A stretch of 64,000 nt of DNA, from the NCBI GenBank assembly GCA_040220235.1, contig JAVJTO010000123.1. The stretch is one strand, 5' to 3'. The translations under genes were made by a program, and so were the position numbers. The number at the start of each line of letters is the position of its first letter. Position 1 is the stretch's first letter. Origin of the DNA: Coleofasciculus sp. B1-GNL1-01 (lineage in GTDB: Bacteria; Cyanobacteriota; Cyanobacteriia; Cyanobacteriales; Coleofasciculaceae). Positions 30,077 through 63,695 of this stretch are shown here, in pieces. The notes beneath the pieces were generated by a model. The model was not told where the DNA came from. It searched no databases and saw only the letters and a list, made by a program, of their open reading frames with translations.

Positions 30077-30195
30077 CATTACTTAACACAATAAAAAAAA
30101 GAGCTGGATTAGACACCCCCCTCTTCTGCCAACTTCCTGACACAATTGTGTTAACCGACTTGCCGAAAACTGCAATAGCCATGGCTAAATCCTGT
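30077..30195 (-). promoter_or_regulatory. 22-bp-phased operator array with -10-like box
   Basis: TGACACAATTGTGT (30138), TTGCCGAAAACTGC (30160), TGGCTAAATCCTGT (30182); CATTACTTAACAC at 30077. Confidence 0.65.
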
Positions 30196-30324
30196 AATTA
30201 CTGGTTCTCAACCTGGCATTCAACCTGGTAGAAAACCTTAATCCCTTACCTCAACGAGTTGTTTATTGTAATTATCAAATGAATCCTAATAATTTAAACC
30301 CAACTCAACCATTCAGCCAAATAT

Positions 30325-30630
30325 ATGATGCAATTTAAACCCACTACTCCCTCAACCCTACGACCCAGCACCGTAGTACTCAGACCCAGTGGTTGTCTAG
30401 ATAGTTCTCGCAGTCCCGCGTTTAGGAAGTCTCTAGAACAAGCCTTAGAATTAGCAACGGATACCGTGATTGTAGATTTACTATCCGTCAACGTAATTAA
30501 AGCCGAAGGAATTCGCAGCCTAATTGCAGGGATGAAACAAGCCGCTGCATTGGGAAAAACCCTATCTTTAGAATTTGTGGACGCCGTGACGCGGATGATT
30601 TTAGAAGAACAATTGCAGAATTTAAGCTGA
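30325..30630 (+). CDS. STAS domain anti-sigma-factor antagonist
   Basis: VVLRPSGCLD...VIVDLLSVNVIKAEGIRSL pattern. Confidence 0.8.
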   Translation: MMQFKPTTPSTLRPSTVVLRPSGCLDSSRSPAFRKSLEQALELATDTVIVDLLSVNVIKAEGIRSLIAGMKQAAALGKTLSLEFVDAVTRMILEEQLQNLS

Positions 30631-30636
30631 TAAGTG

Positions 30637-30678
30637 TCATTCGTCATTGGTCATTCGTCATTCGTCATTCGTCATTTG
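30637..30678. repeat. Heptamer STRR (TCATTCG/TCATTGG)n
   Basis: Tandem 7-mers after the STAS gene. Confidence 0.85.
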
Positions 30679-30802
30679 TTAGGGAATGGGGAATGGGGAA
30701 TAGGGAATGGGAAAAAGGTAGAGTTTTGAGTTAACTTCCCTATCTCCCCCAGCTCCCCCTACTCCCCCTACTCCCCCAGCTCCCCCCATCTCCCCACCAG
30801 CC

Positions 30803-33499
30803 CTAAACCATTTGCCGAACCATCAACTGAGCAAATAACCCCTCCACCGCCGCCAACTCCTCAAACGTTCCCTGTTGCACGATCCGCCCCCCTTCAATAA
30901 CATAGATACGGTGAGCATGGCGAATCGTGCTGAGTCGATGGGCAATCACTAGCCGAGTCACCTGTAACTGATCCAAACTTGCACTGACAATCCCTTGAGT
31001 GCGATTATCTAACGCACTGGTCGCCTCATCAAAGAGTAAAATTCGCGGTTTCAAGACCAACGCCCTGGCTATCAATAACCGTTGCTGTTGTCCCCCCGAC
31101 AAATTCCCGCCCCCCTCACTAATTACCGTATGCATTTCCATCGGCATTGCTGCAATATCATCCGCTAACCCCGCCATCCGCGCCGCGTCCCAGGCTTCAT
31201 CCAACGTAATTTGAACCCCACTGGCAATGTTCTCAAAAATGCTCCCGGACAAAATCCGACCATTTTGCAGCACCACACCCAACTGTCGGCGCACGGCGTT
31301 AATATCTAGCCCCGATAAGGCTTGACCATCATAATCAATCGTTCCCGACTCCGGGGTTTCAAATCCCAGCAATAATCGAAACAGCGTCGATTTCCCACTC
31401 CCAGAACGCCCGACAATGGCAATAAATTCCCCAGGTTCGGCATGAATACTCAAATTATCCAGGATCAGGGGAGCATCATCCCGGTAGCGGAAGCTCACCT
31501 GATTCACCCTAATTCTACCCATCAGTTTACCAGGATCTGCCTTGCTTAAACTCACCTCAGGTCTCGTCTCGACAATCGGCTGGAGACGTTGCCATTGGGG
31601 AATCACTTGCAAAACGTCCAGCGTTGTGTTACTTAAATCCGTAACCCCTTTAATAAACGTGCCAAATGCAGTGTTGAACGCCAAAAACGTGCCAATGGAG
31701 AGTCCCACATTCCCTGGGGTTTCCGCCGCCTCCAGCCGTTGCATCGTCAACCCAAACAGTAATCCCGATGCTAGGGTAGGCATGACCGTATTGAACAGCG
31801 TCACACTATCCTTAATCTGCTGCGTACTCAGATTCAGCTTCACTTGGCGACTATAGTTGTTACTCCACGTCGCAAACGCCCGCCCTTGGGCACCGGCGAT
31901 GCGGAGTTTTGCCATACCGTTAATCAACTGCACCGTCTGTCCGAAAATTGTCCCCTGCAGGGTTAGCAGTCGATAGGTTTTACCCACCAGCAAGGAACTC
32001 GCGATGAGAGTCAAGGCAATTGCTACCACCGCCACGACAACCGCCACCCAAGCCAATGGTACACTATAGTAAAATAACAGCGCCAAATTCAGCAATGCCA
32101 ACCCAGCGCCAATAAAATGAATCACCGTCGTACCACCGAGTTGGCGGCGGATTTGACTAATGGAGGCGACACGAGACTGTAAGTTCCCCGCACTGTAGCG
32201 GCGGAAAAAATAGACCGGTAAATTCAGCAATCGCTCCCAGACAGCCGCTTGGGTAGAGGTATCAGCCACCGTTTCCACTCGCAGCAGCGCCAACCCTTGA
32301 GCAAACAGAAACAACGCCATTCCCATCGCCGCCACCAACAGTCCCGCCCCAACTTGCCATAATAAAGTGCGATCGCTATTCGGAATCGCCTGATCCATTA
32401 AAATAGCCGTAGCTTGAGGCGTCAGCATACCCAACACCGTTGCGGCTATACCGGTGCCAAGAACCATGGGCAAGTCCTGAACCCGCCCCTTTATGCTAAA
32501 CTGCAAGACATCCCACGCCGTCAGCACCTTATCCGGCAGCGTCCGATAAAACATCCAGGCAAAAGCCGTCAAGGTTGAGGCATTCCGGGCAGTTACCGCT
32601 GTACGAGTCCCCAGCACGGGGTCAAAGATATCATAGCCCGTGGCTTTCCTGGGCAACAGCACAACAAGCTGATTATCACACTGTCTGTAGGCAACTAAAG
32701 CCCCACAATCCTTTTTCCACCAATCCTCTCGCAACAACACCCGCCGCATCTGAATCCGAGAGGCTCGCATAATCGCCTCCAACGGTTCCCTCAGCCGCTG
32801 GACATCTTCCGATTGACTCCCAGGGCGGATGGGGACACCCAACGCTTTTCCCACTGCACCCGCCGCCACTAACAAGGGTGAAGGGTTCAGGGAATCGGAG
32901 GTGGCTGGGGTTGCCAAGGTTGATGCCAATTCCCCGATGGCTTGGGCATTTACCTGACGATTCAGACATTCCTCGGCTTCCAGGCGTTGCTGGTGTTCGC
33001 GGTACTCGCGTTCTTCCTGGCGCTGAATCTGGTCAAATAACTGACCATGAACCTGGGATAACGTTTCCACCAGCGCATCAGGTTTAGACGTAATTTCGGC
33101 AACTCCCTGACATCGGCTCTCGGTTTCGCGATCGCAGTATACCGTATAAACCTGTTGAAGCCAACCCGCTATCCAGTTCCTGACGTTATCATCCCCCGTG
33201 GTAATTAACTGGCGAAACCATGTCCCGTCCAATTTTAGCAGCTCGGTCTCCCCAATCGGTACAACCAACAACTGGCGAAAAGACCCAGAAGCGGTGCCAA
33301 AAAGTGCCGCGCCAGAGTCACAACTAAATAGATAACGCCGAATTCCTTCTATCACACCTTGGTTTACCTTAACGGCAAATAGGGCAACAGAACCCGACTG
33401 CACCAGCCAAACCGTCTGCGGGTCATCTAATAAGAATGGCTGATTTCCGTTAATTTTGTAAACTTGTCCCGGTAATTCTCGAATGGTTGGTGAAATCAT
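30803..33499 (-). CDS. NHLP-type bacteriocin export ABC transporter, permease/ATPase subunit
   Basis: N-terminal VWLVQSGSVALF region, peptidase-less, GRSGSGKST, LSGGQ, FDEATSALD. Confidence 0.9.
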   Translation of the reverse strand: MISPTIRELPGQVYKINGNQPFLLDDPQTVWLVQSGSVALFAVKVNQGVIEGIRRYLFSCDSGAALFGTASGSFRQLLVVPIGETELLKLDGTWFRQLITTGDDNVRNWIAGWLQQVYTVYCDRETESRCQGVAEITSKPDALVETLSQVHGQLFDQIQRQEEREYREHQQRLEAEECLNRQVNAQAIGELASTLATPATSDSLNPSPLLVAAGAVGKALGVPIRPGSQSEDVQRLREPLEAIMRASRIQMRRVLLREDWWKKDCGALVAYRQCDNQLVVLLPRKATGYDIFDPVLGTRTAVTARNASTLTAFAWMFYRTLPDKVLTAWDVLQFSIKGRVQDLPMVLGTGIAATVLGMLTPQATAILMDQAIPNSDRTLLWQVGAGLLVAAMGMALFLFAQGLALLRVETVADTSTQAAVWERLLNLPVYFFRRYSAGNLQSRVASISQIRRQLGGTTVIHFIGAGLALLNLALLFYYSVPLAWVAVVVAVVAIALTLIASSLLVGKTYRLLTLQGTIFGQTVQLINGMAKLRIAGAQGRAFATWSNNYSRQVKLNLSTQQIKDSVTLFNTVMPTLASGLLFGLTMQRLEAAETPGNVGLSIGTFLAFNTAFGTFIKGVTDLSNTTLDVLQVIPQWQRLQPIVETRPEVSLSKADPGKLMGRIRVNQVSFRYRDDAPLILDNLSIHAEPGEFIAIVGRSGSGKSTLFRLLLGFETPESGTIDYDGQALSGLDINAVRRQLGVVLQNGRILSGSIFENIASGVQITLDEAWDAARMAGLADDIAAMPMEMHTVISEGGGNLSGGQQQRLLIARALVLKPRILLFDEATSALDNRTQGIVSASLDQLQVTRLVIAHRLSTIRHAHRIYVIEGGRIVQQGTFEELAAVEGLFAQLMVRQMV

Positions 33500-33666
33500 G
33501 GGTTTTGAAGTAAATTGATTTTAAAGTTAACGGTTGAATAAATTCAAGTCATAAACTCGGCAAAAGGGGCGGGTTTAGTCGCATTTAGTTGCAACCAAAA
33601 AGATAGTTGTGAAACCCGCCCCTACAGATACATCCTGCCCAAAAAGCGTTGCGAAGGAACCCTTTA

Positions 33667-33766
33667 CAAATGACCAATGACAAATGACCAATGACAAATG
33701 ACCAATGACAAATGACCAATGACAAATGACCAATGACAAATGACCAATGACAAATGACCAATGACC
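33667..33766. repeat. STRR (CAAATGA/CCAATGA)n
   Basis: Tandem heptamers between the two ABC genes. Confidence 0.9.
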
Positions 33767-33769
33767 AAC

Positions 33770-35980
33770 TTATTGATTTTGAATCAAGGTTGAATACACA
33801 CCCTCCACCTGCCACAAATCTTGATGAGTCCCTTGTTGCACAACCTTTCCCCGTTCCAAAACAATAATTTGATCACAATCTCGAATCGTACTTAATCGGT
33901 GTGCCACAATCAAACAAGTACAGCCACGCCGCCGCAGATTCTCGTCAATCATCCGTTCCGTTTCAGCATCCAAAGCACTCGTCGCTTCATCCATAATCAA
34001 AATAGAGGGATTATTCACCAACGCTCTAGCAATTTCCAACCGCTGCCGTTGACCGCCACTTAAATTAGCCGCATTTGCGATCAATTGAGCATCATATCCT
34101 CCAGGTAGCGAGACAATCACATCATCAATAACCGCATCCTGACAAGCGCGAACAAGATTTGTTTCCGGGATTGTGGGATTCCAGAGGGTCAAATTATCCC
34201 GAACCGTGCCACCAAATAACTGAATCGTCTGCTCAACCATTGCTACAGAATGAGTGAGAACTTGATCCGGTATTTCAGTTCTAAGTTGACCATCAAAATA
34301 AATATCTCCTGACCAGGGTTGATACAGTCCACTGATCAGTTTAGCCAGAGTAGATTTTCCCGAACCACTACTACCCACCAAAGCAATGCGCTGTCCCGGT
34401 AAAACCTTGAGACTAAAGTTTTCAATCAGGGGGGGATCAACTCGGCTGTAGCCAAACGTAATCGCCTGTAACTCAACATAACCTTGTAACTTGGGATATT
34501 GACTCTTGAACTTAGCAGGTTTTGGCGCAACCTGGGGGTCAATTGGGTTACACAAAACATCATCAAGGCGAATTAAATTCCCCTCCAGTTCCTGAAGCAT
34601 ACTAGCAAAACTGACTAAATTATTCACAGGCAACAAAAAGCTCTGCATTAACCCTTGAAATGCCACCAGCATCCCTATACTCAGATATCCATCCATCACC
34701 CGCCACCCGCCAACCACTAATAAAACTAGGGACGAAAGCGCTGATAAAACGGTGGGTAATACCGAGAAAATCTGATTAGTAACATCCAATTCCTGCTGAG
34801 AATTAATCGCTTTCGTATAGTACCCCGCCCAACGAGAAAATACATCGGACTCTAAACCCGAAGCTTTAACCGTCTCAATACTTTGAAGCGCCGCAATAGA
34901 CGCCCCCGCTGCCTTACCATGCTCTTGAATTAAGCGTTGATTCGCATCTTTGCGTTTCCGGGAGACGGACTGTAAGATAAAAACATTCACCGCCGCAAAA
35001 CCAACAACAATTCCCGTCATAATTGGGTCATACTGTACCATGACTAGCCCATAAAAAATCACCATCACGGCATCAATTACCGTCGTCGTCAACCGTCCCG
35101 ACAGCACCTCCGCCACTTGGTCATTGAGACGACTACGATAAGTAATTTCTCCAGCAAATCGTTGGGCATAAAAATCAACCGGTAAGCGCAGGATATGCCA
35201 GAGAAAGCGACTGGACATTCCCACAGACAGTTTCACCTTCAGGCGGCGCAAATACCGCAAGCGTAGCTGAGTCAACAGTCCTTGCAGAATCGCTGTAATT
35301 CCTACACCAATAAGTAACGGACGCAGCCATTGTTGGCGTCCCTGAATCAAGATTTCATCAACAAAGATTTGGCTAAAGACGGGAATTGCCATGCCCACGA
35401 GGGTCAATAAAAATCCTGCCACTATGCAGTACATTAAAGCGCCCACTGTACCTTGTAGCCGTTCCCACAAGGCGAGAATTGTGCTAAATTTGCGCCCCCC
35501 TTTGACAAAATCAGAATTGGGTGTCATCACCAGGACGATACCTGTATAACTGGCATCAAATTCCGAGAAAGACACCGTTCGTGGACCTGTACCCGGGTCA
35601 TTTACGTAAACCTGTCGCTTACCAATTCCTTCTACAACTAAAAAGTGATTGAAATTCCAAAAAATAATATAAGGCGGGCGCAAATCTGGAAGGTCTTGGA
35701 TTTCCTGTTTATAGCCTTGGGCGTCGAGTCCATAGAGTCTAGCCGCTTTAAGAATATTCGCCGCTTTACTACCATCGCGAGACACACCACAGGTTTGCCG
35801 CAATTCAGGTAGGGGGACGATGCGACCATAGTAACTTAAAATAATACCCAAAGCAGCCGCACCACATTCCCCGGCTTCCATTTGCAAAAGTGTGGGCGTT
35901 TTTACCCGCCTATGGCGACGTTTTAGCCGTTTTTTAAGGGATTGAAAAGGGGTAATGAATGTCACGAATACAGTCGTCAT
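33770..35980 (-). CDS. NHLP-type bacteriocin export ABC transporter with C39 peptidase
   Basis: TPTLLQMEAGECGAAAL (catalytic Cys), WNFNHFLVVEG, NDPG; GSSGSGKST, LSGGQRQR; ATG at 35980 preferred. Confidence 0.93.
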   Translation of the reverse strand: MTTVFVTFITPFQSLKKRLKRRHRRVKTPTLLQMEAGECGAAALGIILSYYGRIVPLPELRQTCGVSRDGSKAANILKAARLYGLDAQGYKQEIQDLPDLRPPYIIFWNFNHFLVVEGIGKRQVYVNDPGTGPRTVSFSEFDASYTGIVLVMTPNSDFVKGGRKFSTILALWERLQGTVGALMYCIVAGFLLTLVGMAIPVFSQIFVDEILIQGRQQWLRPLLIGVGITAILQGLLTQLRLRYLRRLKVKLSVGMSSRFLWHILRLPVDFYAQRFAGEITYRSRLNDQVAEVLSGRLTTTVIDAVMVIFYGLVMVQYDPIMTGIVVGFAAVNVFILQSVSRKRKDANQRLIQEHGKAAGASIAALQSIETVKASGLESDVFSRWAGYYTKAINSQQELDVTNQIFSVLPTVLSALSSLVLLVVGGWRVMDGYLSIGMLVAFQGLMQSFLLPVNNLVSFASMLQELEGNLIRLDDVLCNPIDPQVAPKPAKFKSQYPKLQGYVELQAITFGYSRVDPPLIENFSLKVLPGQRIALVGSSGSGKSTLAKLISGLYQPWSGDIYFDGQLRTEIPDQVLTHSVAMVEQTIQLFGGTVRDNLTLWNPTIPETNLVRACQDAVIDDVIVSLPGGYDAQLIANAANLSGGQRQRLEIARALVNNPSILIMDEATSALDAETERMIDENLRRRGCTCLIVAHRLSTIRDCDQIIVLERGKVVQQGTHQDLWQVEGVYSTLIQNQ

Positions 35981-36055
35981 GATTCCAATTTTATAGGCTA
36001 CCAGTCTCACCCTGGGTTATCGAATCGGTTGCCAGATGGATAACTCATCACTGGG

Positions 36056-36174
36056 CTTTAATTAAAACAATAAGCCAATAAATTTTTCGATGCAGTCCCA
36101 GTTTCTGCCAAGGTTATGGTAAGAAGGGGACAGATTAATTACACAATCCGGTGATTGCCCTTACCGAAAACTGC
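36056..36174 (-). promoter_or_regulatory. Conserved operator/promoter of the peptide-exporter ABC genes
   Basis: TTACCGAAAACTGC at 36161 and CTTTAATTAAAAC at 36056; same 105-bp offset as the copies at 41203-41321 and 46691-46809. Confidence 0.8.
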
Positions 36175-36405
36175 CACCCTCGTTTACGTCGGGATTATGT
36201 CACCTTTGTCATGGTGTGGCACAGTAACAGTAAGATTCCCATCAGGGCGGGTTTTGTTGAGAGGTTATCGGTCAATATCAACATTAAATGGCTAAACCCG
36301 CCCCTACAATTGACCTCATACCCTCATCCCCTCTTATCCCCCTACTGGCTTGATACAGCTAAGATTGTGGAATAGATTTCACCATTGAATCGGGCGCACG
36401 TCGGT

Positions 36406-36657
36406 CATTGGTGTCAACTTAAGGTTAACCCCTCACCCCCAGCCCCTCTCCCACGCCGGGGAGAGGGGAGCAAGAGCATCCGATCCCCCTTCTCCCGTGC
36501 AACAAAAGCGAAGCATCTGCTGTCCTCCCCCCTCTTGTAGGGGGGAACGAGGGGGGTGGAGAAGGGGTTAGGGGATGAGGGGGAAATGTTGAGGAATAGA
36601 TAGACACGGTGTAAAACCTTGCCAGCATTGGTTTTCGACCTTAAGTTGACACGGATG
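36406..36657. mobile_element. MITE-like element with GTGTCAACTTAAGGT terminal inverted repeats
   Basis: GTGTCAACTTAAGGT (36411-36425) and ACCTTAAGTTGACAC (36638-36652); interrupts a GCACGTCGGT REP-like repeat; internal palindromes also near 23400-23497 and 28737-28845. Confidence 0.6.
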
Positions 36658-36732
36658 CACGTCGGTGCTAACCTACGGTTTCGGGGCTAATGGTTAATTC
36701 ATCAAATAAGGTGTGCCACACCATTACTCTCT

Positions 36733-38178
36733 TTAATAAATGCCACTACTCGACCTAAGAATCGGTAGAATAAACGTAATTGGCGCTCGTTCTTCTATCG
36801 TCACGCGAACGGTGGTGGTGGTTCCCGAAGAGATGTTGAGTTCAGGTCCTTTAGAAGATGACCATTTGTAACCACTAAATGTTGTAGAATCAGGATGGAG
36901 GTCAGCGACAACTTGCATCAGTCCTGCTGGCTGATTGGATACCAAATCGGCGACGATTTCTGGATTACCGACAACCTTCGCGGCGGCGGCTTGGGTGATG
37001 GGAAAGGTGGAAATATCTTTAACGGTACCGACGATACCGCCAAAGCGTTCCCGCTTCACGGTTTGGGGTGTGATTTGTAGCGTCATACCGGGTTTAATTT
37101 TTTTGCCGTCGCCAACGGAGAAATAGGTAATTCCCACCATTTCGCTGTCGGGATGTGCCGCGTCTAGGGTTGCCAAACGGGTTCCAGGGTTGACCACTTG
37201 TCCAGGATTAACCGCGAGTTCGACAATGCGTCCGCTGTGGGGGCTGATAATTTGGCTATTCTCATTTAATTGTACTTCCAGTTGGGCAATGTCGCGCTGA
37301 ACCGCTTGAATTTCTTTCTGGCGCAGGGTGACGGCTTCTAAGTCTTCTTGGGCGAGATTGGCTTGGCGACTCTCGAGGGCTTGGAGTTGCGATCGCAAGT
37401 TAGTAATAGTACTTAGGTTATCACGATAGGCTTTTTCTTGCTCGGTTGCTGTAACATCGAGTTCTGTTAACTGGGTTTGGAGTTTAGAGATGGTATCCTG
37501 GTTCTCTTGAACTTGCACTTGAGCATCCAGCAGAACATCATGAGTAATCACTCGTTCGGCAAAAAGTTGCTGACGGATGTCTAATCTCTGTTGATAAATA
37601 GGAGTCATCCCCTGAACTTGCTGTAAGCTTTGTTGCAGGCTTTGGCGTTGTTGTTTCAGAGATTCATTACTGGTAGTTTTAAGTAATGGGGTTAAGGATT
37701 GGAGTTCCTGAATCCGTTGCTGGAGGTATTGGCGTTGCTGTTGAATCGAGTGTTTTTCCTGTTCAATTCGCAGGGCTTGCAGTGAACTAACGGCTTGGTT
37801 TTGGGACTGGAGTTGGGCGAGTTTAGTTCGTTGCTGTTGGAGTTGTTTTTGGAGTTCAGTTTGGTTAATAGTTCCCAGAATTTGACCTTTTTTAACGGTA
37901 TCTCCTACTTCGACAGTTAAATCGGATAATTGCCCGGAATTTTTGGATTGAAGTGGGACAACGTTGCTAGGGTAAACCAAGACACCGCGCCCTTCAATCG
38001 TGATGGGAATGCGTCCGTAAATACTCCAGAATCCCGCAGCGGCGACTAAAGAGGTTAAGGAGAGTAAAGGAAGCCAACTTTTGGGGTTGACGACTTCCAT
38101 AAGTTGGTCTAGCCGTTCGGGAGAGGATAAACGTTCTAGAGATTTTTCTCGAAATAGAGTTTGTTTTTGAGTTAGCAT
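36733..38178 (-). CDS. NHLP bacteriocin system secretion protein (HlyD-type membrane fusion protein)
   Basis: LFREKSLERLSSPERLDQLM N-terminus, TM, long coiled coil, YKWSSSKGP. Confidence 0.92.
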   Translation of the reverse strand: MLTQKQTLFREKSLERLSSPERLDQLMEVVNPKSWLPLLSLTSLVAAAGFWSIYGRIPITIEGRGVLVYPSNVVPLQSKNSGQLSDLTVEVGDTVKKGQILGTINQTELQKQLQQQRTKLAQLQSQNQAVSSLQALRIEQEKHSIQQQRQYLQQRIQELQSLTPLLKTTSNESLKQQRQSLQQSLQQVQGMTPIYQQRLDIRQQLFAERVITHDVLLDAQVQVQENQDTISKLQTQLTELDVTATEQEKAYRDNLSTITNLRSQLQALESRQANLAQEDLEAVTLRQKEIQAVQRDIAQLEVQLNENSQIISPHSGRIVELAVNPGQVVNPGTRLATLDAAHPDSEMVGITYFSVGDGKKIKPGMTLQITPQTVKRERFGGIVGTVKDISTFPITQAAAAKVVGNPEIVADLVSNQPAGLMQVVADLHPDSTTFSGYKWSSSKGPELNISSGTTTTVRVTIEERAPITFILPILRSSSGIY

Positions 38179-38302
38179 GATTGATTCAGAAGCATCCCCC
38201 GATTTGACGTCGGGGGAGTGTTAATTACAATCTGGTTAGTGTCAGGACTAAGCTGTTATGCATTTAGTTTTTTGACCCGAAAATCTTGAAGGAGTCTGGG
38301 CT

Positions 38303-38539
38303 TCAGAACAGCGTATAAGGGTATTTACTGAACTGCGGTTTTGCAATATACCATCCACCAGATACGGTTTCCAACTGTTCATCGGATAGTTCTTCCGCCC
38401 CAAGGCTAGCCGTCAAATTTTGGGTAGATTTCATGGCTTGGACTTCATCTAAGTTTTTTCCTCCCGTTGTTAATGACAACGATTGTGGCTGAGTTTTAGA
38501 TTCAGACATCTTGGCAAAAAATGGATTGATGTTAGGCAT
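38303..38539 (-). CDS. Double-glycine leader peptide precursor 1; core WYIAKPQFSKYPYTLF
   Basis: ELSDEQLETVSGG cleavage motif; RBS CGGAG; adjacent to a C39 exporter. Confidence 0.85.
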   Translation of the reverse strand: MPNINPFFAKMSESKTQPQSLSLTTGGKNLDEVQAMKSTQNLTASLGAEELSDEQLETVSGGWYIAKPQFSKYPYTLF

Positions 38540-38788
38540 TTGATTTTCTCCGTTATTTTTGCGGGTTATGAGGACTCTTTTATTACAAAAAATAGAACAG
38601 TCTATTTTTTGGTGTCCTACTCCATTAATACTAATCGCAATCTATTCTAATTGAGTAGTACTATTTTTTGGTAAAATAGGATATTTATTTGAATAAATAT
38701 ATTGATTTAAAAAATAAATTACACAAAATAAAAGCCGATCATTTTCTGGAACTGCCGACTTCCCTAACTTGGCTTATTTTTCAGAAAA

Positions 38789-38842
38789 TTATAAACGCTC
38801 TAGCAATTTTTTTTGAAATAGCGTGTGTTTTTGAGTCAGCAT
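38789..38842 (-). pseudogene. Remnant copy of the first 17 codons of the HlyD-type gene
   Basis: MLTQKHTLFQKKLLERL* versus MLTQKQTLFREKSLERL; the upstream hairpin is duplicated too. Confidence 0.8.
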
Positions 38843-39023
38843 GATTGATTCAGAAGAATCCCCCGATTTGAGGTCGGGGGAGTGTTAATTACAATCTAGT
38901 TAGGGTCAGGATTATGCATTAAGCTATAGTCCATTGTTAGCGGCTCATAACGTATCATTACCTTACCGTTATAGATTGCGTAGATACGTTAATTGTGTTC
39001 GTTTAAATTTGGCTAAATTTCGG

Positions 39024-39451: not shown

Positions 39452-39519
39452 GCTTTTGCAAAAATTCAGTCGCTTTTAAAGCGATTAAGCTGTATACCAA
39501 TTAAAATGTCATAACAGCT

Positions 39520-54803: not shown

Positions 54804-55142
54804 ATGGCGACAGGAAGACACCTGTTCCAGTTGTTGTCGGAAATGTCTGGAACAATCGGGAAGGGTATCTATCGATAACCTCTCGACAAAAGCCGCCCTG
54901 GGTTATTCAAGGGGTTTTTGTAGCTTGTGTTACTGTTTTGCTCTTTCTCGTTTCCAGCATCCCTCTAGGAAATGCTCTTGAAGAGTGGTTATTATTAAGA
55001 GGCGAAGTCTCCCTGAGCTCATTCCCTTCTCAAAACTGGGAATGAAGTAAACGAGGCAAAAAGCAAGTGTTAGTAACAAAAATTAATTTAATTGGAGAAC
55101 AAGCGGAAACCGATTAGAATTACAGTTAATCCGACGGTCACT

Positions 55143-55743
55143 AACTTGGACGCCGGGAAATCAATTTCCGGCTGAAAGCTAAAGTAAGCTAAAGCTTACT
55201 AAATTAAAGGCGTTGAACCCGTTTCAACGGGTTTGAGCTTTTAGCCCGAACTTGAGTTCAGGGCTTCTTGCGTGTTTGTCGTGAGTGTTTCAACTTGGAC
55301 GCCGGGAAATCAATTTCCGGAACCAACGCTAAAGTAAGCTAAAGCTTACTAAATTAAAGGCTTTGAACTCGTTTCAACGGGTTTAAGCTTTTAGCCCGAA
55401 CTTGAGTTCTGGGCTTCTTGCGTGTTTGTCGTGAGTGTTTCAACTTGGACGCCAGGAAATCAATTTCCGGCTGAAAGCTAAAGTAAGCTAAAGCTTACTG
55501 GATTAAAGGCTTTGAACCCGTTTCAACGGGTTTAAGCTTTTAGCCCGAACTTGAGTTCAGGGCTTCTTGCGTGTTTGTCGTGAGTGTTTCAACTCGGACG
55601 CCGGGAAATCAATTTCCGGCTGAAAGCTAAAGTAAGAATCGAGCTTACTAGACTAAAGGCTTTGAACCCGTTTCAACGGGTTTAAGCTTTTAGCCTGAAC
55701 TTTAGTTCAAGGCTTTTCAAGTGTTTGTCATGAGTGTTTCAAC
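55143..55743. repeat. Four tandem ~149-bp palindrome-rich repeat units
   Basis: Units start at 55143, 55292, 55442 and 55591; each has CCGGGAAATCAATTTCCGG, AGTAAGCTAAAGCTTACT, AACCCGTTTCAACGGGTT and AGCCCGAACTTGAGTTCAGGGCT-type hairpins. Confidence 0.92.
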
Positions 55744-55779: not shown

Positions 55780-58404
55780 ATGAAAAGCCAACACCGCCGA
55801 TTCCGAATTCGCCCCTTTCTCCTGATTCTATTCCTGTGTAGTCTCACTTTCAGTTTGAGTCTAAGTCAGGTTTCCTTAACCCTTACCCCCCTCAAACTTA
55901 GCCCCATCGCCACCGCCCAAACACTGAATCCCGATCAACTCGTGGAACAAGGTATCCAACGCTACAAAAACGGTGATATTTACGACGCCATCGAACCTTG
56001 GCAAACCGCCTTAACCCACTACCAAGACACCAACAAAAGAGCCAGCGCCGCCATAGTTCAAGAAAACCTCGCCCGCGCCTATCAACACCTCAAGCAAAGC
56101 GAAAAAGCCCTCACCTATTGGGAAAATGCGATCGCCTATTATCGCCAAATCGCTGATACCCCCCAAGTAGCAAGGCTTCTCGTCGAAAAGGCACAAACCT
56201 ATACTAATATAGGACAACCCAGAACCGCGATCGCACTCTTATGTAATCCCTCCCCGAACGACTGTACCCCCGATAGCGCCCTCGCCCTTGCCCGTACCAC
56301 CCAAGACAAACCCACCGAAGCCGCCGCCTTGGGAAGTTTAGGTGAAGCCTTGCGGCTGCGAGGCGACTACAAAAGCGCCCTCACCCATCTGCAAGCCAGC
56401 TTAGATTTGGCAACAGAAATGGGTAATATCGCCTATCAAACCTCAACCCTAACTCATCTAGGCAATACCTACCTTAGCCTTGCCAACATCCATTATCGCC
56501 GCGCCAACTCTGCAACCATTCGCGGCGATACCATCGAAGCCGATAAACTCAAAAAACAAGCATTAACCTACGACACCGAAGCCCTCACCGTCTTTCAAAC
56601 CAGCCTCAACCTCGCCCAAACCCACAACGATCGCCTAGGACAACTGAGATCGCTCCTCAATACCATTACTCCAGAATACCGCACCCAGTCTACCCGCCAC
56701 GCCCTCAAACAAGCCCTCTCCCTCCTAGAAACCTTACCCGATTCCCGTGATCAAGTCTATGGGGCGATTGACTTAGCCCACTTCCTCAGTCAAGGAAACA
56801 CAAAGGCGACAACCCAATGTGTCACCCCAGAATCCCCCAGCCAAACCCTACACCTCCTGCAACAAGCCGTCGCCATCGCCCAACGCCTCCAAGACAATCG
56901 CGCCCAATCCTTTGCCCTAGGGGAACTCGGTCATTTCTACGAATGTCAGCAAGACTACTCCCAAGCCCTCAACTTCACCCAACAAGCCCGATTAGCCGCC
57001 GACCAAGACCTGCTAGCTAAAGATAGCCTCTATCTGTGGGAATGGCAAGCCGCACGCCTGTATAATGCCCAAGGAAACCCAACTCAGGCGATTGACACAT
57101 ACAACCGCGCGATCGCAACCTTAGAAAGTATCCGAGGTGATATTCTCCTCGCCAATCGCGACATCCAATTCGACTTTCGTGATACCGTTGACCCCCTTTA
57201 CCGACAACTCATCGAACTCAGATTAGAACGCGCCTCCCTCTCCTCAACTCCAACGTCTGAGAAAACCAAAACCCTCACCTCTGTTCTCAACACCGTTGAC
57301 TCCCTCAAATTAGCCGAACTTCAAGACTATTTTGGCGGCGATTGTGTCTTAACCGCCTTCAACCAAGAACGAGTAGATTTAGTCGGAGAAAACACCGCCA
57401 CTGCCGTCTTTAGTTCCATCATTTTACCAGACCGCACCGCAATTATCGCCAGTTTTCCCAACGGTGAAAAACGACTCACCTGGATAAACATTGACCGCGA
57501 AACCCTCAGACAAGAAATCAACACCTTCCGTCGCGGACTCGAAAGCTTTTTTAGAACCTATAACCCCCAACCCGCCCAGAAACTTTACGACTGGATTATT
57601 CGCCCCTTCGCCGCCGATTTAGACCAAGCCAACATCAAAACCTTAGTCTTCATTCAAGATGGTATCCTACGCAGTATCCCCATGGCAGCCCTCCACGATG
57701 GCGAGAACTTTCTAGTGCAAAAGTATGCCATTGCTACCACACCAACCTTAACCCTAACTGACCCCAAAACCCTCAACCGCGAAGACCTGCTAGCATTAGC
57801 TTTAGGATTAACCCAACCCGCGATTATCGAGGGTCGCGAATTTCCCCCTTTACCGAATGTTTCCTGGGAAATTAATCAGGTCAAAACCCTACTCCCTGGA
57901 AGCCAAGGATTACTGGATGAAGACTTCACCTCAACTCGCCTACAACAGGAATTAAACCAAACCGTTTACCCCATTCTTCATATTGCCACCCACGGCGAAT
58001 TTGGTGGTGATCCAGAAAACACATTTATTGTCACAGGAAACAATGAAAAACTCACGATTACTGAGTTGGATAGAAAGCTACGGACGGTTTCAAAACGTTC
58101 TGACCCCGTAGAACTCCTCACCTTAACCGCTTGCCAAACCGCTGCTGGAGATGACCGCGCCGCCTTGGGTTTAGCGGGTGTCGCGGTGCAAGCGGGTGCT
58201 AGAAGTGCTTTAGCTTCCCTTTGGTTTATTGATGATGCTACAACTGCCCAAATTGCCACGGATTTTTATGCTAATTTACGCGATTCTAGGATTAGTAAAG
58301 CCGAAGCACTTCGCATGGCTCAAGCCTCATTAATTGAAGCCGGAGGAAAAACCGCTCACCCCGCTTATTGGGCAGCATTTATTATGATTGGTAATTGGTT
58401 GTAA
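55780..58404 (+). CDS. Signal peptide - TPR - CHAT (caspase-HetF-like) protease
   Basis: N-terminal hydrophobic segment, TPRs, ILHIATHGEF and LTLTACQTA dyad, ASLWFIDD, HPAYWAAF. Confidence 0.92.
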   Translation: MKSQHRRFRIRPFLLILFLCSLTFSLSLSQVSLTLTPLKLSPIATAQTLNPDQLVEQGIQRYKNGDIYDAIEPWQTALTHYQDTNKRASAAIVQENLARAYQHLKQSEKALTYWENAIAYYRQIADTPQVARLLVEKAQTYTNIGQPRTAIALLCNPSPNDCTPDSALALARTTQDKPTEAAALGSLGEALRLRGDYKSALTHLQASLDLATEMGNIAYQTSTLTHLGNTYLSLANIHYRRANSATIRGDTIEADKLKKQALTYDTEALTVFQTSLNLAQTHNDRLGQLRSLLNTITPEYRTQSTRHALKQALSLLETLPDSRDQVYGAIDLAHFLSQGNTKATTQCVTPESPSQTLHLLQQAVAIAQRLQDNRAQSFALGELGHFYECQQDYSQALNFTQQARLAADQDLLAKDSLYLWEWQAARLYNAQGNPTQAIDTYNRAIATLESIRGDILLANRDIQFDFRDTVDPLYRQLIELRLERASLSSTPTSEKTKTLTSVLNTVDSLKLAELQDYFGGDCVLTAFNQERVDLVGENTATAVFSSIILPDRTAIIASFPNGEKRLTWINIDRETLRQEINTFRRGLESFFRTYNPQPAQKLYDWIIRPFAADLDQANIKTLVFIQDGILRSIPMAALHDGENFLVQKYAIATTPTLTLTDPKTLNREDLLALALGLTQPAIIEGREFPPLPNVSWEINQVKTLLPGSQGLLDEDFTSTRLQQELNQTVYPILHIATHGEFGGDPENTFIVTGNNEKLTITELDRKLRTVSKRSDPVELLTLTACQTAAGDDRAALGLAGVAVQAGARSALASLWFIDDATTAQIATDFYANLRDSRISKAEALRMAQASLIEAGGKTAHPAYWAAFIMIGNWL

Positions 58405-58474: not shown

Positions 58475-59269
58475 TCACCTATCTAATACCTCAACAATTT
58501 GTGTCAATCGCTGACCCTGTTCACTGCCATTTTCTGCTGCTTGTAAGTTTTCTAACTCAGCTAAATCCTTGAGTAAATCTTCAAGTAAAATACTTGCCTC
58601 ATTTCCTGATGCTAAAACTTCCGCTAATGCATCATACCATAACCCTGCCTCTGCATATCGCTTCGCTCTTTCTAGGGGATCAAGACTATCAGAAAATGTC
58701 CCTGGCGTCTGGACAACATCAATATCCGCCCCCGCTACTAAAGCGCTAGAGGGGGAGTTGGGGTTACACAGAAGCACAACTCTCCAACCATATCTTTGTC
58801 CAATTGATAAACCCGGTTTATCCTTTGGTAACGATAATGTCATGATTCCCGGAGAACTTTGTAGCGGAATTTCCTGGATTACGTTACGACTCCCATTTGA
58901 CCCATATTCATAGAGTTGAAAGATTATCTCATAAGATTGAGTATCCGGGACAAACCAAGCGAAGGTAGGGTGAGTGGAAGCCGTTTGTCCCACATGGCTT
59001 TGAGGGGCGAGGGCTGTTAAACTAATTTTTGCATCACCCGTACAACCGCCTCGTCTACCTTCTGAACCATCGCCAAAGGGCGACAGCAAATCATCAGGAG
59101 GTTGGTATAGTCTTGTTCCCGTTGAACCTGTATGAGCTGGATCAGGTGCGCCCTCTCCGTTTTTATCATCAGCTAAAGCGACACCACCTATTACCAAAGA
59201 TAAACTGAGAACAGCACCGATTACGAGTTTACCATTAAATTGTTTTGTTAGCCGCCATAAAAGTTGCAT
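58475..59269 (-). CDS. DUF928 domain-containing exported protein
   Basis: Signal peptide; RRGGC..LTALAP..T..HPTFAWFVP; YAEAGLWYDAL. Confidence 0.85.
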   Translation of the reverse strand: MQLLWRLTKQFNGKLVIGAVLSLSLVIGGVALADDKNGEGAPDPAHTGSTGTRLYQPPDDLLSPFGDGSEGRRGGCTGDAKISLTALAPQSHVGQTASTHPTFAWFVPDTQSYEIIFQLYEYGSNGSRNVIQEIPLQSSPGIMTLSLPKDKPGLSIGQRYGWRVVLLCNPNSPSSALVAGADIDVVQTPGTFSDSLDPLERAKRYAEAGLWYDALAEVLASGNEASILLEDLLKDLAELENLQAAENGSEQGQRLTQIVEVLDR

Positions 59270-59290: not shown

Positions 59291-59408
59291 CTTTATTTAC
59301 AGCCTACAACCCAGGACTTGTGCATCTGATGCCTATAAGTGTAAACCTAATGACAGAATTGGGATGGTTTGCTCACAAGTTCCCGTTATTGTCCTGGCTG
59401 AAAACTAC
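59291..59408 (-). promoter_or_regulatory. Degenerate copy of the operator array upstream of DUF928
   Basis: CTTTATTTAC at 59291; TGACAGAATTGGGA at 59351; TGGCTGAAAACTAC at 59395 (44 bp from 59351). Confidence 0.55.
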
Positions 59409-59763
59409 ATAGCCTGTCCTGTCCTAAAGATTACCCAAAATTGCAATTCTTTAAACCCTATTGTTTCAGGCATTTTTTTCAGAGTGTTTGACCGGACAGG
59501 ATAAGCTACACGGCTGTTTCAGACGTAGCAGGCTACGTCTAAAACAACGTTACCCCAATCTAGGATAATCTTATCGATAAAAGTTCAGGAAATGTTCAGG
59601 AAAGTTCAGGAAAGTTCAGGAAAAGTTGACAGCTAATATTAAGTTGCGTTAAATAAATAGGGCTAAAACCTTTATCAATGACCTTTTTTAAATTATTTTG
59701 ACGAATAACCCTCAACAGGTTATGTATCTTTGTTGAAACTCAAAGGGTATGACTTCCTCAACA

Positions 59764-61668
59764 TTACCAGAACCACGCTTTTGCCACAGACCAAGTTAAT
59801 TCACAAACGGTTCCTTTGGGAGAATTAGGAAACCGCCGAAACGTTCCTCGCAGTTGTCGAGCCAGATTTTTTGCCTGCTGCGTTCCCCGACCTCGATATT
59901 GATCTAAGTTATCAGATAATGCGTCTAAACCTACCCCATTATCGATAATGCGAATAACATTCTTACCGTTTTCTTGAGTACAAATTACACTCAGACGAGT
60001 CACCCCAACAGCGTATTTCCCTACATTACACAACGCCTCTTCTAGAAATCGACACAACCCCCGCTTTTGGTCGAGGCTTAGATATCGACTTTCTAGAGGT
60101 TCAAATTTATTAATTTGAAGTTTAATGGTTTTAAAGCAAGGAAAATCACGAGTTATCGTATTATCGTAAACTTGATAGAGTATTTCATGAATTGGCGTCT
60201 GTAAATCTAATTCTAAATTACCGCCCAGATAAATATGTTCCCCTTGGGTTAACGTTTCTCGACGAACGGATTCATAGACTGTGCGAATCTCTTGGTTCAA
60301 CTGTTTAAGTTCAGACAACAACAGTTCAGAATATAAATGGTTTTCTTGAGCCGTGCTTAAAATCCTTGCCAGTCTTTGCAACGGTCCATTGTGGATGGTA
60401 TCAAATGTATGGTCAATAATAAATTGCCGCTCTTGCAGCCGTAACCGCAAATCCTGTTGATGTCGATAAAATAACCCAGCGGTGAGTCCAGCACCATTAA
60501 AAACAAGAGGAAGAATTGCCGGAATAAGGGGAATCCACCACCCTAAAATCAACCCGAAATAACAAATACCGATTAATCCCACACTAGCCATCCCCAATCC
60601 CATCAGAATCTTGAAAGGGGATTGAAATAGCCGACCCAGACTAATACCTAAAAACCCCCAGGCAAAAATCCACAAATATTCCCATCCATCTGACCAAACC
60701 TGCAAAAGGGGACGCCCATCCAGAACAGCACTAATAATTTGACTCACCGCATGAGCTTGAATTTCCGCCCCATAAACCAGTTTGGGGTTAACACCCGTAA
60801 TCGCCGCCGAATTTACGATATCCTTGACACTAGCAGCCGTTATCCCAACTAAGACAATGCGATCGCGAATCCAGTTGGGATCAACATGTCCACTTTTGAT
60901 ATCATTAAGTGAGATCACTCTAAACGGTTCTCGACCACCGCGAAAATTGAGCAAAATCTGATTTCCGCCAGCATCGGCTCTCACATATCCCCCAGAATTG
61001 GGTTGAAACCGAGTCAGTTCAGTGGAACCAAACCGGATAGCATTGGGGTCATGAATTCCCTGTTCTAGGGGAATTCCTTGACTAGATAAATAGGTTTGAG
61101 CCAGACGTAGCGTCAGAGACAATTTACGCTCTCCCTGGGGAGTAGAAATGCGAAGCAGGCTGCGTCTGAGATACCCATCTCTATCCAGAACCGCATCAGC
61201 AAATCCAGCTTGATCAGGGGGCAAATCGGGTGGTGGACTAACAGTAAACCCCTCGCGATCGCGCAACGCTTTCTCAATCGCAATTAAGTTTTTGCTCTCT
61301 CTAAATACTTCAACCAATTTAGCATGACCGGGCTCAACGGGTAAGTCTCTAAAGATATCAAGACCAATGACATTCGGCTGATAATTCTGCAATAGTCTCA
61401 GGAGTTCAGCAATATCTTGATCAGGAATAGGATACGTTCCTATCTGCTGGATATCTCCTTCATCAATCCCAACAATCACAATTCGTTCATCCATAGGTTC
61501 AGCTGGACGCAGCCGCAGAAAATTATCCAGCACCACCCATTCCAAAAATTGTAGCGAACCCGTCAGACGAGCCAGCATGACCAGTCCAATAATAATCAAT
61601 CCTGGCAAAGCCCCAACCCGCCAGATGGCAAGTTCCGCTTGAATGTTTCGCCAAAGGTTACGCTGCAC
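59764..61668 (-). CDS. CHASE2-domain sensor histidine kinase (HisKA_3-like)
   Basis: RIVIVGIDE, IGLDIFRD, GAEIQAHAVSQI; three TMs; H-box TIHNGPLQ; EEALCNVGKYA, IIDNGVG, GRGTQQA. Confidence 0.9.
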   Translation of the reverse strand: MQRNLWRNIQAELAIWRVGALPGLIIIGLVMLARLTGSLQFLEWVVLDNFLRLRPAEPMDERIVIVGIDEGDIQQIGTYPIPDQDIAELLRLLQNYQPNVIGLDIFRDLPVEPGHAKLVEVFRESKNLIAIEKALRDREGFTVSPPPDLPPDQAGFADAVLDRDGYLRRSLLRISTPQGERKLSLTLRLAQTYLSSQGIPLEQGIHDPNAIRFGSTELTRFQPNSGGYVRADAGGNQILLNFRGGREPFRVISLNDIKSGHVDPNWIRDRIVLVGITAASVKDIVNSAAITGVNPKLVYGAEIQAHAVSQIISAVLDGRPLLQVWSDGWEYLWIFAWGFLGISLGRLFQSPFKILMGLGMASVGLIGICYFGLILGWWIPLIPAILPLVFNGAGLTAGLFYRHQQDLRLRLQERQFIIDHTFDTIHNGPLQRLARILSTAQENHLYSELLLSELKQLNQEIRTVYESVRRETLTQGEHIYLGGNLELDLQTPIHEILYQVYDNTITRDFPCFKTIKLQINKFEPLESRYLSLDQKRGLCRFLEEALCNVGKYAVGVTRLSVICTQENGKNVIRIIDNGVGLDALSDNLDQYRGRGTQQAKNLARQLRGTFRRFPNSPKGTVCELTWSVAKAWFW

Positions 61669-61764
61669 AAGGAACAGGGAATAGGGAATTAGGGAGCATG
61701 TAGAGACGCGCCATGGCGCGTCTGGGGAGCAAATGACTAATGACTAATAACCAATGACCAATAA

Positions 61765-62448
61765 CTAATCAATTAAACCCTCCTCCTTAGCACGCATTTG
61801 GGTTTGAATCCGAATATTTTTCCCCGGTTCCGGATAAACGCCCAAAGCGTCTTGAACCTTCGTCCAATAATGACGCACAGTTCGTTCAGCAATATTCATC
61901 TGCTGAGCGATCGCTTTATCTTGTAATCCTTCTTGAAAGGCGAGGGTCAACAGTTCCAACCATTCCGGCTTAACTTCCAACCCCGTTCGCATCTCTCTGG
62001 GCGTGTAAACCACTCCCTGAAGCGCCCAATCAACCTTAGTTAACATTTCCTGGAGGGGCAGACTTTTGTCTACAATCGTAAAACCCCCTTCATGAGTCGA
62101 GATCGCAGGTTTGAGACGCACCAGTGAGCGGACATGAGCGCTTTGAACTACAATATTCAAGGTGGGATACTGCTCCATCAACGTTCTCACCAGTTGAATC
62201 CCTGTCTCCGTTCGCGCCATGTCTCCAGGTTGCTCTGGAATAGAAAGATCCAGAATCGCCAAATCAGGTTGAGCGCCCTCCACTTGTTGTTGAGCGCCTC
62301 GTGCGGTTTGAGCGGTGATCACATCGGCTTCTGGGTACTGCTTTGTCAGCATATTCACAGTTCCATCCAAGACAGCTTCGTGATCATCAACCACGAGAAT
62401 TTTTGACTTGACTAGCTTTGGTGATTTTAGACTCATATTCAAATCCAT
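61765..62448 (-). CDS. NarL/LuxR-type DNA-binding response regulator
   Basis: ILVVDDH, LAILDLSIP, C-terminal GLQDKAIAQQMNIAERTVRHY HTH; start may be 62436. Confidence 0.92.
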   Translation of the reverse strand: MDLNMSLKSPKLVKSKILVVDDHEAVLDGTVNMLTKQYPEADVITAQTARGAQQQVEGAQPDLAILDLSIPEQPGDMARTETGIQLVRTLMEQYPTLNIVVQSAHVRSLVRLKPAISTHEGGFTIVDKSLPLQEMLTKVDWALQGVVYTPREMRTGLEVKPEWLELLTLAFQEGLQDKAIAQQMNIAERTVRHYWTKVQDALGVYPEPGKNIRIQTQMRAKEEGLID

Positions 62449-63304
62449 CGCAGTCTAGGGTTAATTTTGGGAGCTGAGGTTGGGGTGATTGCCAACGGAA
62501 GTGCCACGTTACCATCAACTCCTTTCTCTTATAAAAGCACTGTCCGCCGGTGACAAAGTGAAAAGCTTCCTTAAGATAGTCCAAATCTTTGAGACTTGAT
62601 GGACAGACCACTGTTGATTCATTAGGATAAGAGAGTTGAACTCTAATATCACCGAACTTCCCCTGTTTCTGTAAGCGGACATGAATCGATAGTTGAGTGA
62701 ACACCTCTGAGGGAAGCATACCAATTTTTTCAGTCTGGCATTGTTGAAACCCTCTGAGTACGCCTTTGGTGTCGGTGTCGTTGCTCCAACGGGATGTACC
62801 TCCTTGAGATAACGTAATTCGCAGTAACTCATCTAAGGCGATTAAAATCACTCGAGAGCACTCAGGAGACTCATCCTGCCAATCCCCCGGCAGTTCCATC
62901 TGAATGTTAAGGTGAGGATTGTAAGTTTGCCACAGTTCGAGCAAGTACTGTACAGCTAGGGGTAAACTTTCCTCAACAAAAGGAGGCGATAGGCGATCGC
63001 TCAATTGTCCCAGAGAATGATGGAACTTTTCAATCCCCTTTAACCAGTCTCGGACATGCTCCAAAGAAATCTCATGACTATCTCCCAGCCATAACTCTAA
63101 GCTGCGACGCATCGCCAATGACTCTTGCAACAACCCATTACGAATTCGCTCAGTTTCGCAATACAGTTGAAACCCTCGCCTGCGTTCCCACCATCGCAAA
63201 GCTCGTCGCGCCCTAGAGTAGGATAGGAATAGTCCCACACAGATGAGTACACCAGCAATCGAAACTACGCTCTCTAAAACAATAAAATAGGAAACATTAA
63301 CCAT
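62387..63304 (-). CDS. Membrane-anchored degenerate histidine-kinase-like protein (pseudokinase)
   Basis: N-terminal TM; RIRNGLLQ aligns with the H-box TIHNGPLQ but lacks His; LSP..ESLPLAVQYLL and LIALDELL resemble HisKA_3/HATPase. Confidence 0.65.
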   Translation of the reverse strand: MVNVSYFIVLESVVSIAGVLICVGLFLSYSRARRALRWWERRRGFQLYCETERIRNGLLQESLAMRRSLELWLGDSHEISLEHVRDWLKGIEKFHHSLGQLSDRLSPPFVEESLPLAVQYLLELWQTYNPHLNIQMELPGDWQDESPECSRVILIALDELLRITLSQGGTSRWSNDTDTKGVLRGFQQCQTEKIGMLPSEVFTQLSIHVRLQKQGKFGDIRVQLSYPNESTVVCPSSLKDLDYLKEAFHFVTGGQCFYKRKELMVTWHFRWQSPQPQLPKLTLDCDGFEYESKITKASQVKNSRG

Positions 63305-63615
63305 TTGGGGATCATCAATTTGCTTGGATTAGTGGATTCAGACCCGAGTAGAGAGAACGCAGCACTGACTCCTCGCGTAAGCGGGATAGCAGGAACAAGA
63401 AGACGAAAAGCTTCACCTAATTGTATGCCAGTACGGTTAGCTGTACTTTTTGGCTTACAGCACATTGCTTAAGGCTTACAGCAGTTTTCAAGTTAGTAGA
63501 CTACAGACGATGATTGCGCCCAAAAACCAACCGATACAATTTTCTATTCCATAAACGTGAAAAGCGCTGTAAAAGCGTTTCAAGTCCATACTAGAAGTCT
63601 TAAAGCAGTCGCCCA

Positions 63616-63695
63616 TTACCGAAATTTACCAAATTGCTTGCCGTTTTTGGATTCATCTATGACACAATCCTGCCAATCCGTTTGCCGAAAACTGC
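63616..63695 (-). promoter_or_regulatory. 22-bp-phased operator array upstream of the pseudokinase-RR-CHASE2 operon
   Basis: TTACCGAAATTTAC (63616), TTGCCGTTTTTGGA (63638), TGACACAATCCTGC (63660), TTGCCGAAAACTGC (63682). Confidence 0.78.

Follow-up and report, generated by a model that had tools for sequence, protein, structure and literature searches.

Why does one intergenic sequence recur in front of seemingly unrelated genes on a single contig of Coleofasciculus sp. B1-GNL1-01 (assembly GCA_040220235.1, contig JAVJTO010000123.1)? In the 64,000 nucleotides that we analyzed (the window), the 14-mer TTRCCGAAAACTGC occurs exactly at 30160, 36161, 41308, 46796, 54790, and 63682, always on the plus strand, and a first-pass annotation made from the sequence alone had read it as the operator of a local regulon. 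Our results support a model whereby these sites belong to arrays of palindromic boxes bound by the NarL/FixJ-type response regulator encoded at 61765-62448 (minus strand), a protein that would thereby switch on its own operon as well as some nine promoters nearby; on the comparative sequence evidence, we give this reading a probability of roughly 0.88. The regulator combines a receiver (Pfam Response_reg, 6e-12) with a LuxR helix-turn-helix domain (GerE, above cut-off) containing the helix ERTVRHYW, and its best PDB match is DevR (E=3.3e-12). About ten promoters of this kind lie in the window, and one of the arrays is bidirectional.

In the whole genome (8,664,607 bases, 172 contigs), the six copies are the only exact ones, with 0.34 expected under a fifth-order Markov model. 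None of the 13 one-mismatch copies elsewhere in the genome has an RCRYAAT partner, and a genome search for RCRYAAT 20 bp before the 14-mer, allowing at most two mismatches, returned six of six in the window region. The annotated positions, the RCRYAAT exactly 20 bp before every copy, the stepping of further sites by 22 bp, and the copies of the 13-mer CTTTAATTAAWAC at 36056, 41203, and 46691 were all borne out, and the exact 14-mer is confined to these six sites rather than scattered genome-wide. That the sites are always intergenic holds for five of the six, which are clear of the four nearby open reading frames (ORFs) checked; site 54790 overlaps a 103-aa plus strand ORF that is probably spurious. 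The GC content of the region is ordinary for the genome. Its presence varies among relatives, the regulator being absent from two of eight congeners, and in the congener G254 the region's genes are rearranged and spread over two contigs. Coleofasciculus is also the source of the regulator's closest named homologs, at 96-99% identity. An Rfam scan of the window found no family at the arrays, its sole match being a tRNA at 5112-5183. Metatranscriptome contigs (from 4 of 12 runs) cover the intergenic DNA of 29000-47300 as evenly as the genes and may contain DNA, and they are therefore uninformative on starts or expression.

The unit of the motif emerges from the class as a whole, for which 251 genomes were sampled, 81 of them with the regulator family. 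In the non-coding DNA of 76 regulator loci (four near-identical Coleofasciculus loci left out), the top spaced palindrome is TTGCA-N6-TGCAA, found at 20 loci versus 0.61 expected, and a matrix from 114 sites describes a 16-bp palindromic box with the consensus TKGCAGAAAASTGCAA. Built without Coleofasciculus, the matrix picks up each of the six sites in the window as well as new ones at 20764, 41826, 59395, and 59431. The 14-mer corresponds to this palindrome without its last two bases, and the related half-site annotated at -22 is the next, weaker palindrome; what had been described as direct-repeat half-sites are actually 16-bp palindromes in tandem. A direct-repeat reading is ruled out by the palindromic box, its occurrence in both orientations, and its sharing between divergent promoters. 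The common orientation noted at the outset holds in the window and is not a fixed property, the 52 boxes upstream of homologous operons being mixed (31 versus 21). Nor is the motif particular to this island, since it is conserved across cyanobacteria; the original list of sites also missed the arrays at 20764, 41826, and 59395/59431 and the plus strand array from 30160.

Around the 52 operon-upstream boxes, neighboring boxes are most evident at +22 toward the gene (z=8.4) and then at +44 (z=3.4), with a weak signal at -22 (z=1.8). Measured from the primary box, a TAN3T hexamer starts at exactly +60 in 28/52 loci and at +82 in 12/52; any of +60, +82, and +104 is occupied in 38/52 loci versus a null mean of 2.3, and in the opposite direction the three offsets yield 1, 2, and 0. 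Counting every strong box (126, from 116 loci), a TAN3T stands at those offsets or one base later for 94 (null 17, maximum 27). These offsets correspond to two, three, and four boxes and therefore define a rule whereby a unit of box-N6 with a 22-bp period is repeated two to four times and the last box ends 22 bp before the -10 hexamer (box-N22-TAN3T). Were transcription to start 12 bases downstream of the hexamer's first base, the center of the last box would fall near -42.5. All six sites of the first-pass annotation fit the rule, five at +104 and 30160 at +82, and no consensus -35 was seen at the window promoters. Of 420 candidates screened across the genome with a composite filter, 12 passed, 11 of them in this region (nine promoters) and one, weak, on contig C30; the array at 41826 failed the filter.

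The three promoters that carry the 13-mer (36161, 41308, and 46796) have spacer identities of 0.57-0.65 among themselves versus 0.18-0.45 for the other 18 promoter pairs, in which boxes are conserved (0.39-0.69) and spacers and flanks are near random; the three are thus duplicated copies of one cassette. The 13-mer itself was tried as the -10 and dropped in favor of TATYGT at +104, the likely -10 element, which overlaps the 13-mer by only 2 bases. The starts predicted from it (~36060, 41207, and 46695) lie some 10 bases from those proposed earlier (near 36050, 41197, and 46685).

We favor the NarL-type regulator as the binder because the boxes adjoin its operon, because box type follows regulator clade, and because genomes without an AraC-type protein keep the arrays. 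A box of at least 16 bits is found at -1400 to -700 of the regulator, before the gene for a pseudo-kinase, in 48 of 66 loci, while 11 control windows had a box at 0-4 of 48-76 loci; a box also precedes DUF928 in 23 of 68 homologous loci. The pattern occurs in 35/81 regulator-positive genomes versus 11/170 negative ones by hand count (reversed control, 3/251). In other species, the genes behind in-phase boxes are the pseudo-kinase operon (47), DUF928 (17), FhaC (3), two single matches, and 34 outside the query set, and neighbors at 121 regulator loci, which are of unequal length, comprise the kinase (104), the pseudo-kinase (76), DUF928 (64), CHAT (41), two-partner secretion (TPS) proteins (34), ABC transporters (19), and FhaC (18). 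On both counts, the conserved core is therefore a feedback loop that acts on a module for secretion and the envelope, to which this region has added the peptide exporter, protease, caspase-domain genes, STAS, and AraC.

A single clade (support 100) unites the regulators with the helix xRTxRNYW[IVL]R, and these have TTTCC-N6-GGAAA upstream, often as TTTCCAAATTTGGAAA. With no more than one mismatch tolerated in the arms, TTGCA-type boxes occur at 33/68 His-type loci versus 0/32 Asn-type loci and TTTCC-type boxes at 0/68 versus 9/32; this comparison used a quick tree and left out four near-copies, six duplicates, and seven His-type loci with short upstream DNA. Two genomes (G046 and G197) each contain both box types, each beside a different paralog. 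In the alignment, R189, R192, and H193 of the regulator correspond to K179, K182, and N183 of DevR, such that the His/Asn change between clades aligns with DevR Asn183; these DevR residues are base contacts according to PMC4082495.

Several observations weigh against this assignment. No 16-bit upstream box is present at 18/66 loci, no TTTCC box at 23/32 Asn-clade loci under the strict test, and no strong box at three loci with the helix ERTVRNYWSK. A paralogous regulator on contig C44 of this same genome (helix TRTVLHYW) has only boxes of 8-13 bits, and of 56 exact 14-mer matches found in other genomes, 48 lie away from any listed regulator match. The clade contrast is a single evolutionary switch, so that p-values overstate it, and the three duplicate promoters represent one origin when counting. 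Regulators with the helix RM[VI]RHYW pair with canonical boxes at L087, L108, and L148 and elsewhere with a third variant, DTGTATTTTTCGGAAA; there is therefore no simple helix-box code. A de novo search for exact palindromes at RM[VI]RHYW and ERTVRNYW loci yielded nothing clear. Two genomes without boxes (G255 and G257) do not discriminate because both regulators, NarL-type and AraC-type, are absent there. The C44 paralog locus (G000 C44:116132-133850) comprises the regulator, a CHASE2 kinase, DUF928, CHAT, TPS, and FhaC without a pseudo-kinase, and it has weak boxes at 129239, 129260, and 129282 before a 709-aa gene.

Among the alternatives, an unlinked dimeric factor, for example of the CRP/FNR family, that binds the boxes and controls the loci survives best, and we consider it improbable. 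In its favor, CRP and NtcA promoters have a similar N6 spacer and a layout like box-N22-TAN3T, and 11 regulator-less genomes have a pattern match. However, such a factor poorly explains two box types in one genome beside different paralogs or the concentration of 11 of the 12 composite matches in this one region, and the TTGCA/TGCAA arms differ, by eye, from the CRP, FNR, and NtcA consensus sequences. It is less probable still that the NarL-type regulator binds the boxes and represses: the arrays stop 22 bp short of the -10 and cover neither it nor the start, and the lack of a consensus -35 together with a DevR-like activation geometry speaks for an activator.

As candidate regulators, the first-pass annotation had named both the NarL-type protein and the AraC-type protein encoded at 45762-46220 (minus strand); the former is strongly favored, and binding by the latter is very unlikely. 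AraC-family activators use repeats about 21 bp apart, and this AraC gene, the genome's only PF12833 match, lies inside the region and behind a box. Against it, an AraC match occurs at 1/121 regulator loci and 0/52 box-bearing homologous loci, two genomes that are both 100% complete (G252 and G253) have boxes and regulator without a PF12833 match, and the box, a palindrome without preferred orientation, switches type with the NarL clade. Among the other genomes tested, three congeners and four further genera do have AraC-type matches. That AraC genes are targets is suggested by the full-length AraC regulator of G254, which sits behind a +104 array, and the AraC-type protein of the window, which has only a receiver stub, is likely a target and second-tier regulator. 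In G254, polyketide-synthase-like genes (judged from N-terminal sequence only) lie within the region beside the box-controlled full-length AraC gene (C58:57057-70484 and C98:3036-25443).

We find it hardly credible that promoter duplication, or a repeat of mobile or structural nature, produced the motif without any shared regulator. Three promoters are duplicates by their spacers, and a dispersed repeat of similar geometry exists; against this, boxes are conserved in near-random surroundings at the 18 other promoter pairs, the class as a whole retains box position and -10 phase, and no Rfam family matches. The dispersed repeat, which contains TGGCACTAAAGTGCC, has 29 copies in the genome and a box-like geometry and scores only 10 bits with the box matrix; it is a possible decoy or source of boxes, and a degenerate genus-wide pattern search was discarded as it mostly caught this repeat, not boxes. 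Two strong intergenic boxes in this genome (G000), C70:75811 (22.7 bits) and C31:24821 (20.2 bits), stand alone without phased partners; the gene downstream of the former has an N-terminus that resembles GAPDH.

Comparative genomics thus supports the idea that one local activator on phased sites co-activates the region including its own operon, and we suggest that the NarL-type regulator does so by DevR-like cooperative activation. The operon would be read from the four-box array at 63616-63697 (primary box 63682-63697), with a -10 TAGTAT at 63588-63593 (+104) and a predicted start at ~63581; this array, the operon, and, unless noted, the further arrays, likely targets, and peptide export genes below are on the minus strand. 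Its first gene, 62387-63304, encodes a 305-aa membrane-anchored, kinase-like protein that lacks the phosphorylatable His (IRNG where the kinase has IHNG) and has no Pfam or NCBIfam match; with the His absent in 28/32 parsed H-boxes of homologs and present nearby in 4/32, the product is likely a pseudo-kinase and may be a partner of the kinase. After the regulator gene, 59764-61668 encodes a CHASE2 sensor histidine kinase with the H-box IHNGPLQ (Pfam; HATPase_c match below cut-off), whose homologs have IHNGPLQ in all 72 parsed cases together with N, G1, and G2-like boxes. By analogy to DevR-type systems, the regulator would be phosphorylated by the CHASE2 kinase; its dimers would occupy the strong distal box first and then, cooperatively, the weaker ones on the same face of the helix, and the dimer on the last box, centered near -42.5, would bring RNA polymerase to a promoter whose -35 is poor. 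Combined with cooperative arrays, autoregulation would make the output switch-like; the predicted outputs are genes of the envelope and of secretion (TPS exoprotein, DUF928, peptide exporter, and PEP-CTERM protease) and the second-tier regulators AraC and STAS. From its gene neighborhood, an envelope signal handled by the DUF928/CHAT/TPS module would be the likeliest input, at about even odds, with an exported peptide as the main alternative.

This mechanism is of an already known kind, although the system would not be the DevR regulon itself. In DevR/DosR of M. tuberculosis (PMC3177182), palindromic boxes, a strong primary and weaker secondary ones, occur in helical phase at two to four per promoter and are shared at divergent promoters; the boxes of tgs1-Rv3131 lie at -63.5 and -42.5, helical phase is required, and some promoters have three or four boxes. 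Here, too, the proximal box lies near -42, as placed from predicted -10 elements. Unlike the 18-bp DevR boxes, which are 3 bp apart and of another sequence, the box here is 16 bp long with a 22-bp period, and the Dev box with its GGGACT half-site is not matched by our matrix. The inputs and outputs also differ, a CHASE2 sensor with a pseudo-kinase and a local regulon of secretion genes here, heme sensors and a genome-wide regulon in DevR. Class II promoters of NtcA and CRP share the palindrome, the N22 spacing, TAN3T, and an activator near -42, and differ in their arms and in lacking arrays of two to four boxes and the tie to a two-component operon.

The peptide genes of the region raise the question of whether the system is a quorum-sensing circuit, since double-glycine (GG) peptides, a C39 exporter, and two-component genes are together the layout of peptide quorum sensing. 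At the seven loci of one regulator family (f5), which are close kin, GG peptides, C39 exporter, HlyD, pseudo-kinase, regulator, and kinase follow in one row. At six of them (L131-L133 and L138-L140), a 22-bp array that starts with the third variant, DTGTATTTTTCGGAAA, and has a TAN3T at +83 or +105 precedes the peptides, about 6 kb upstream of the regulator; this array was first seen by eye and then checked by pattern. It was not found by the strict pattern at the seventh locus (L149), and L150 has a similar array before its operon. The kinases of L138, L139, and L140 (303-314 aa) keep the H-box and have lost the CHASE2 region, which argues that CHASE2 is not always the input. Exporter matches are uncommon, the 19 ABC matches among the 121 loci leaving most loci with none; our GG-leader pattern was too strict, finding 2/146 loci and missing the f5 peptides.

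It is tempting to speculate that a circuit for peptide quorum sensing in filamentous cyanobacteria is built around this regulator family, with the kinase sensing exported GG peptides (cores such as LFFWWYK) and three operator dialects (TTGCA-N6-TGCAA, TTTCC-N6-GGAAA, and DTGTATTTTTCGGAAA) insulating paralogs; we regard this as rather doubtful. If true, the regulator would switch on the peptides, the exporter, adhesin-like exoproteins, and itself and could control mat or biofilm building. ComCDE, Agr, Pln, and ComQXPA likewise have GG-leader peptides, a C39 exporter, an autoregulated two-component system, and phased operator repeats; in contrast to these, the regulator here is NarL rather than LytTR, the sites are palindromes, and the peptide genes of the window have no box to themselves. 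The peptides might just as well be an output, like the EbfG biofilm proteins. The EbfG/PteB cluster of Synechococcus elongatus (PMC12267927) and Anabaena asr5139-alr5148 (PMC3140520), the latter named in the former source as its best Anabaena counterpart, have GG-motif small proteins, a C39 exporter, and HlyD, whereas the passages on them describe neither an adjacent two-component system nor this operator. The terms "two-component" and "response regulator" have no occurrences in PMC3140520, and a search for alr5149-alr5151 returned none.

The operator and regulon of this widespread cyanobacterial NarL-type system are real and apparently undescribed. In agreement with the first-pass annotation, for which the motif matched no known description, our literature search found none of the motif or the module, nor any study of the regulator family; subscription papers and preprint supplements lay outside it and could hold one. 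The parts of the literature consulted on DUF928 (in WD40-protein context), DUF4278, CHASE2 in Anabaena, and bacteriocin clusters held nothing relevant, and neither did passages of PMC4558948. The operator would give a first handle on unstudied signaling that likely controls secreted proteins and peptides in a mat-forming cyanobacterium and many others. The box-N22-TAN3T rule in 22-bp steps predicts targets and start sites in any cyanobacterium, and the operator supplies a reporter for finding what CHASE2 senses. Moreover, a single predicted switch joins the DUF928/CHAT/TPS module to GG-peptide export cassettes, making peptide signaling and biofilm control testable.

Downstream of the operon, two overlapping weaker arrays (59329-59446; primary boxes 59395 and 59431) precede the gene for a DUF928 protein with a signal-like N-terminus (58475-59269; domain match), a likely target; the -10 is TAGGCT at 59301-59306 (+104), a TAN3T lies at +103 from 59431, and the same two sites occur at L032, L033, and L034. 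The array at 54724-54805 has four boxes, all good palindromes, a -10 TATTGT at 54696-54701 (+104), and a predicted start at ~54689, and the two-partner-secretion (FHA-like) exoprotein at 47364-54386 (domain matches) is its likely target. A TPR-CHAT protease (55780-58404, plus strand; domain match) belongs to the conserved module, and no in-phase -10 faces it from the 54790 array. Between that array and the CHAT gene lie about four tandem copies of a roughly 150-bp repeat (55100-55600).

On the side of the AraC gene, a four-box array (46730-46811; -10 TATCGT at 46702-46707, +104; predicted start ~46695) precedes a small DUF4278 protein (46393-46653; domain match), a likely target that is also preceded by a box in G254 and G027. 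A HEAT-repeat/NACHT protein (42110-45718) lies downstream of the AraC gene and may be co-transcribed from the 46796 promoter. The weaker candidate array at 41760-41841 (primary box 41826) has TAGAGT at +103 and precedes a 71-aa ORF (41443-41658). At 41242-41323, four boxes with a -10 TATCGT at 41214-41219 (+104; predicted start ~41207) precede a trypsin-like protease with PEP-CTERM (39989-41125; domain matches), a likely target. Between the trypsin and HlyD genes, three ORFs for GG-leader peptides with short aromatic cores (39520-39678, 39024-39242, and 38303-38539; leader matches mostly below cut-off) lie without a box of their own and are possibly read through from the 41308 promoter. Two of the three are tandem duplicates whose leaders are nearly identical and whose aromatic cores differ.

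The four-box array at 36095-36176 (-10 TATTGT at 36067-36072, +104; predicted start ~36060) faces the C39 peptidase ABC pair (33770-36010 and 30803-33499; TIGR03796 and TIGR03797 above cut-off), a likely target, whereas the NHLP-type HlyD secretion protein (36733-38178; TIGR03794 above cut-off) and the three peptide genes lie upstream of 36161. The bidirectional array (30116-30241) shares the primary box 30160-30175 between a TATTGT at 30088-30093 on the minus strand (+82) and a TATTGT at 30264-30269 on the plus strand (+104), and G254:C98 has an identical +82/+104 divergent layout. Its minus strand side faces a 57-aa membrane peptide (29848-30021; ORF reading) and a PPIase (29083-29805; domain match), both likely targets, and its plus strand side a STAS anti-anti-sigma-like ORF (30325-30630; Pfam STAS above cut-off) that was missing from the annotated targets.

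Outside the annotated span, an extra array at 20698-20779, with the primary box TTGCAGAAATCTGCAA at 20764 (22 bits) and TATTGT at +103, precedes a caspase-domain gene (17054-20539). At 9820-20539, this caspase-domain/lipase-like gene and then a gene for a STAND-WD40-periplasmic-binding protein apparently stand behind the 20764 array. A DUF4277 transposase fragment adjoins a truncated TPS gene at 8142-9553, and at the contig end (63800-64000), beside the operon's array, lies a start resembling a DUF4277 transposase.

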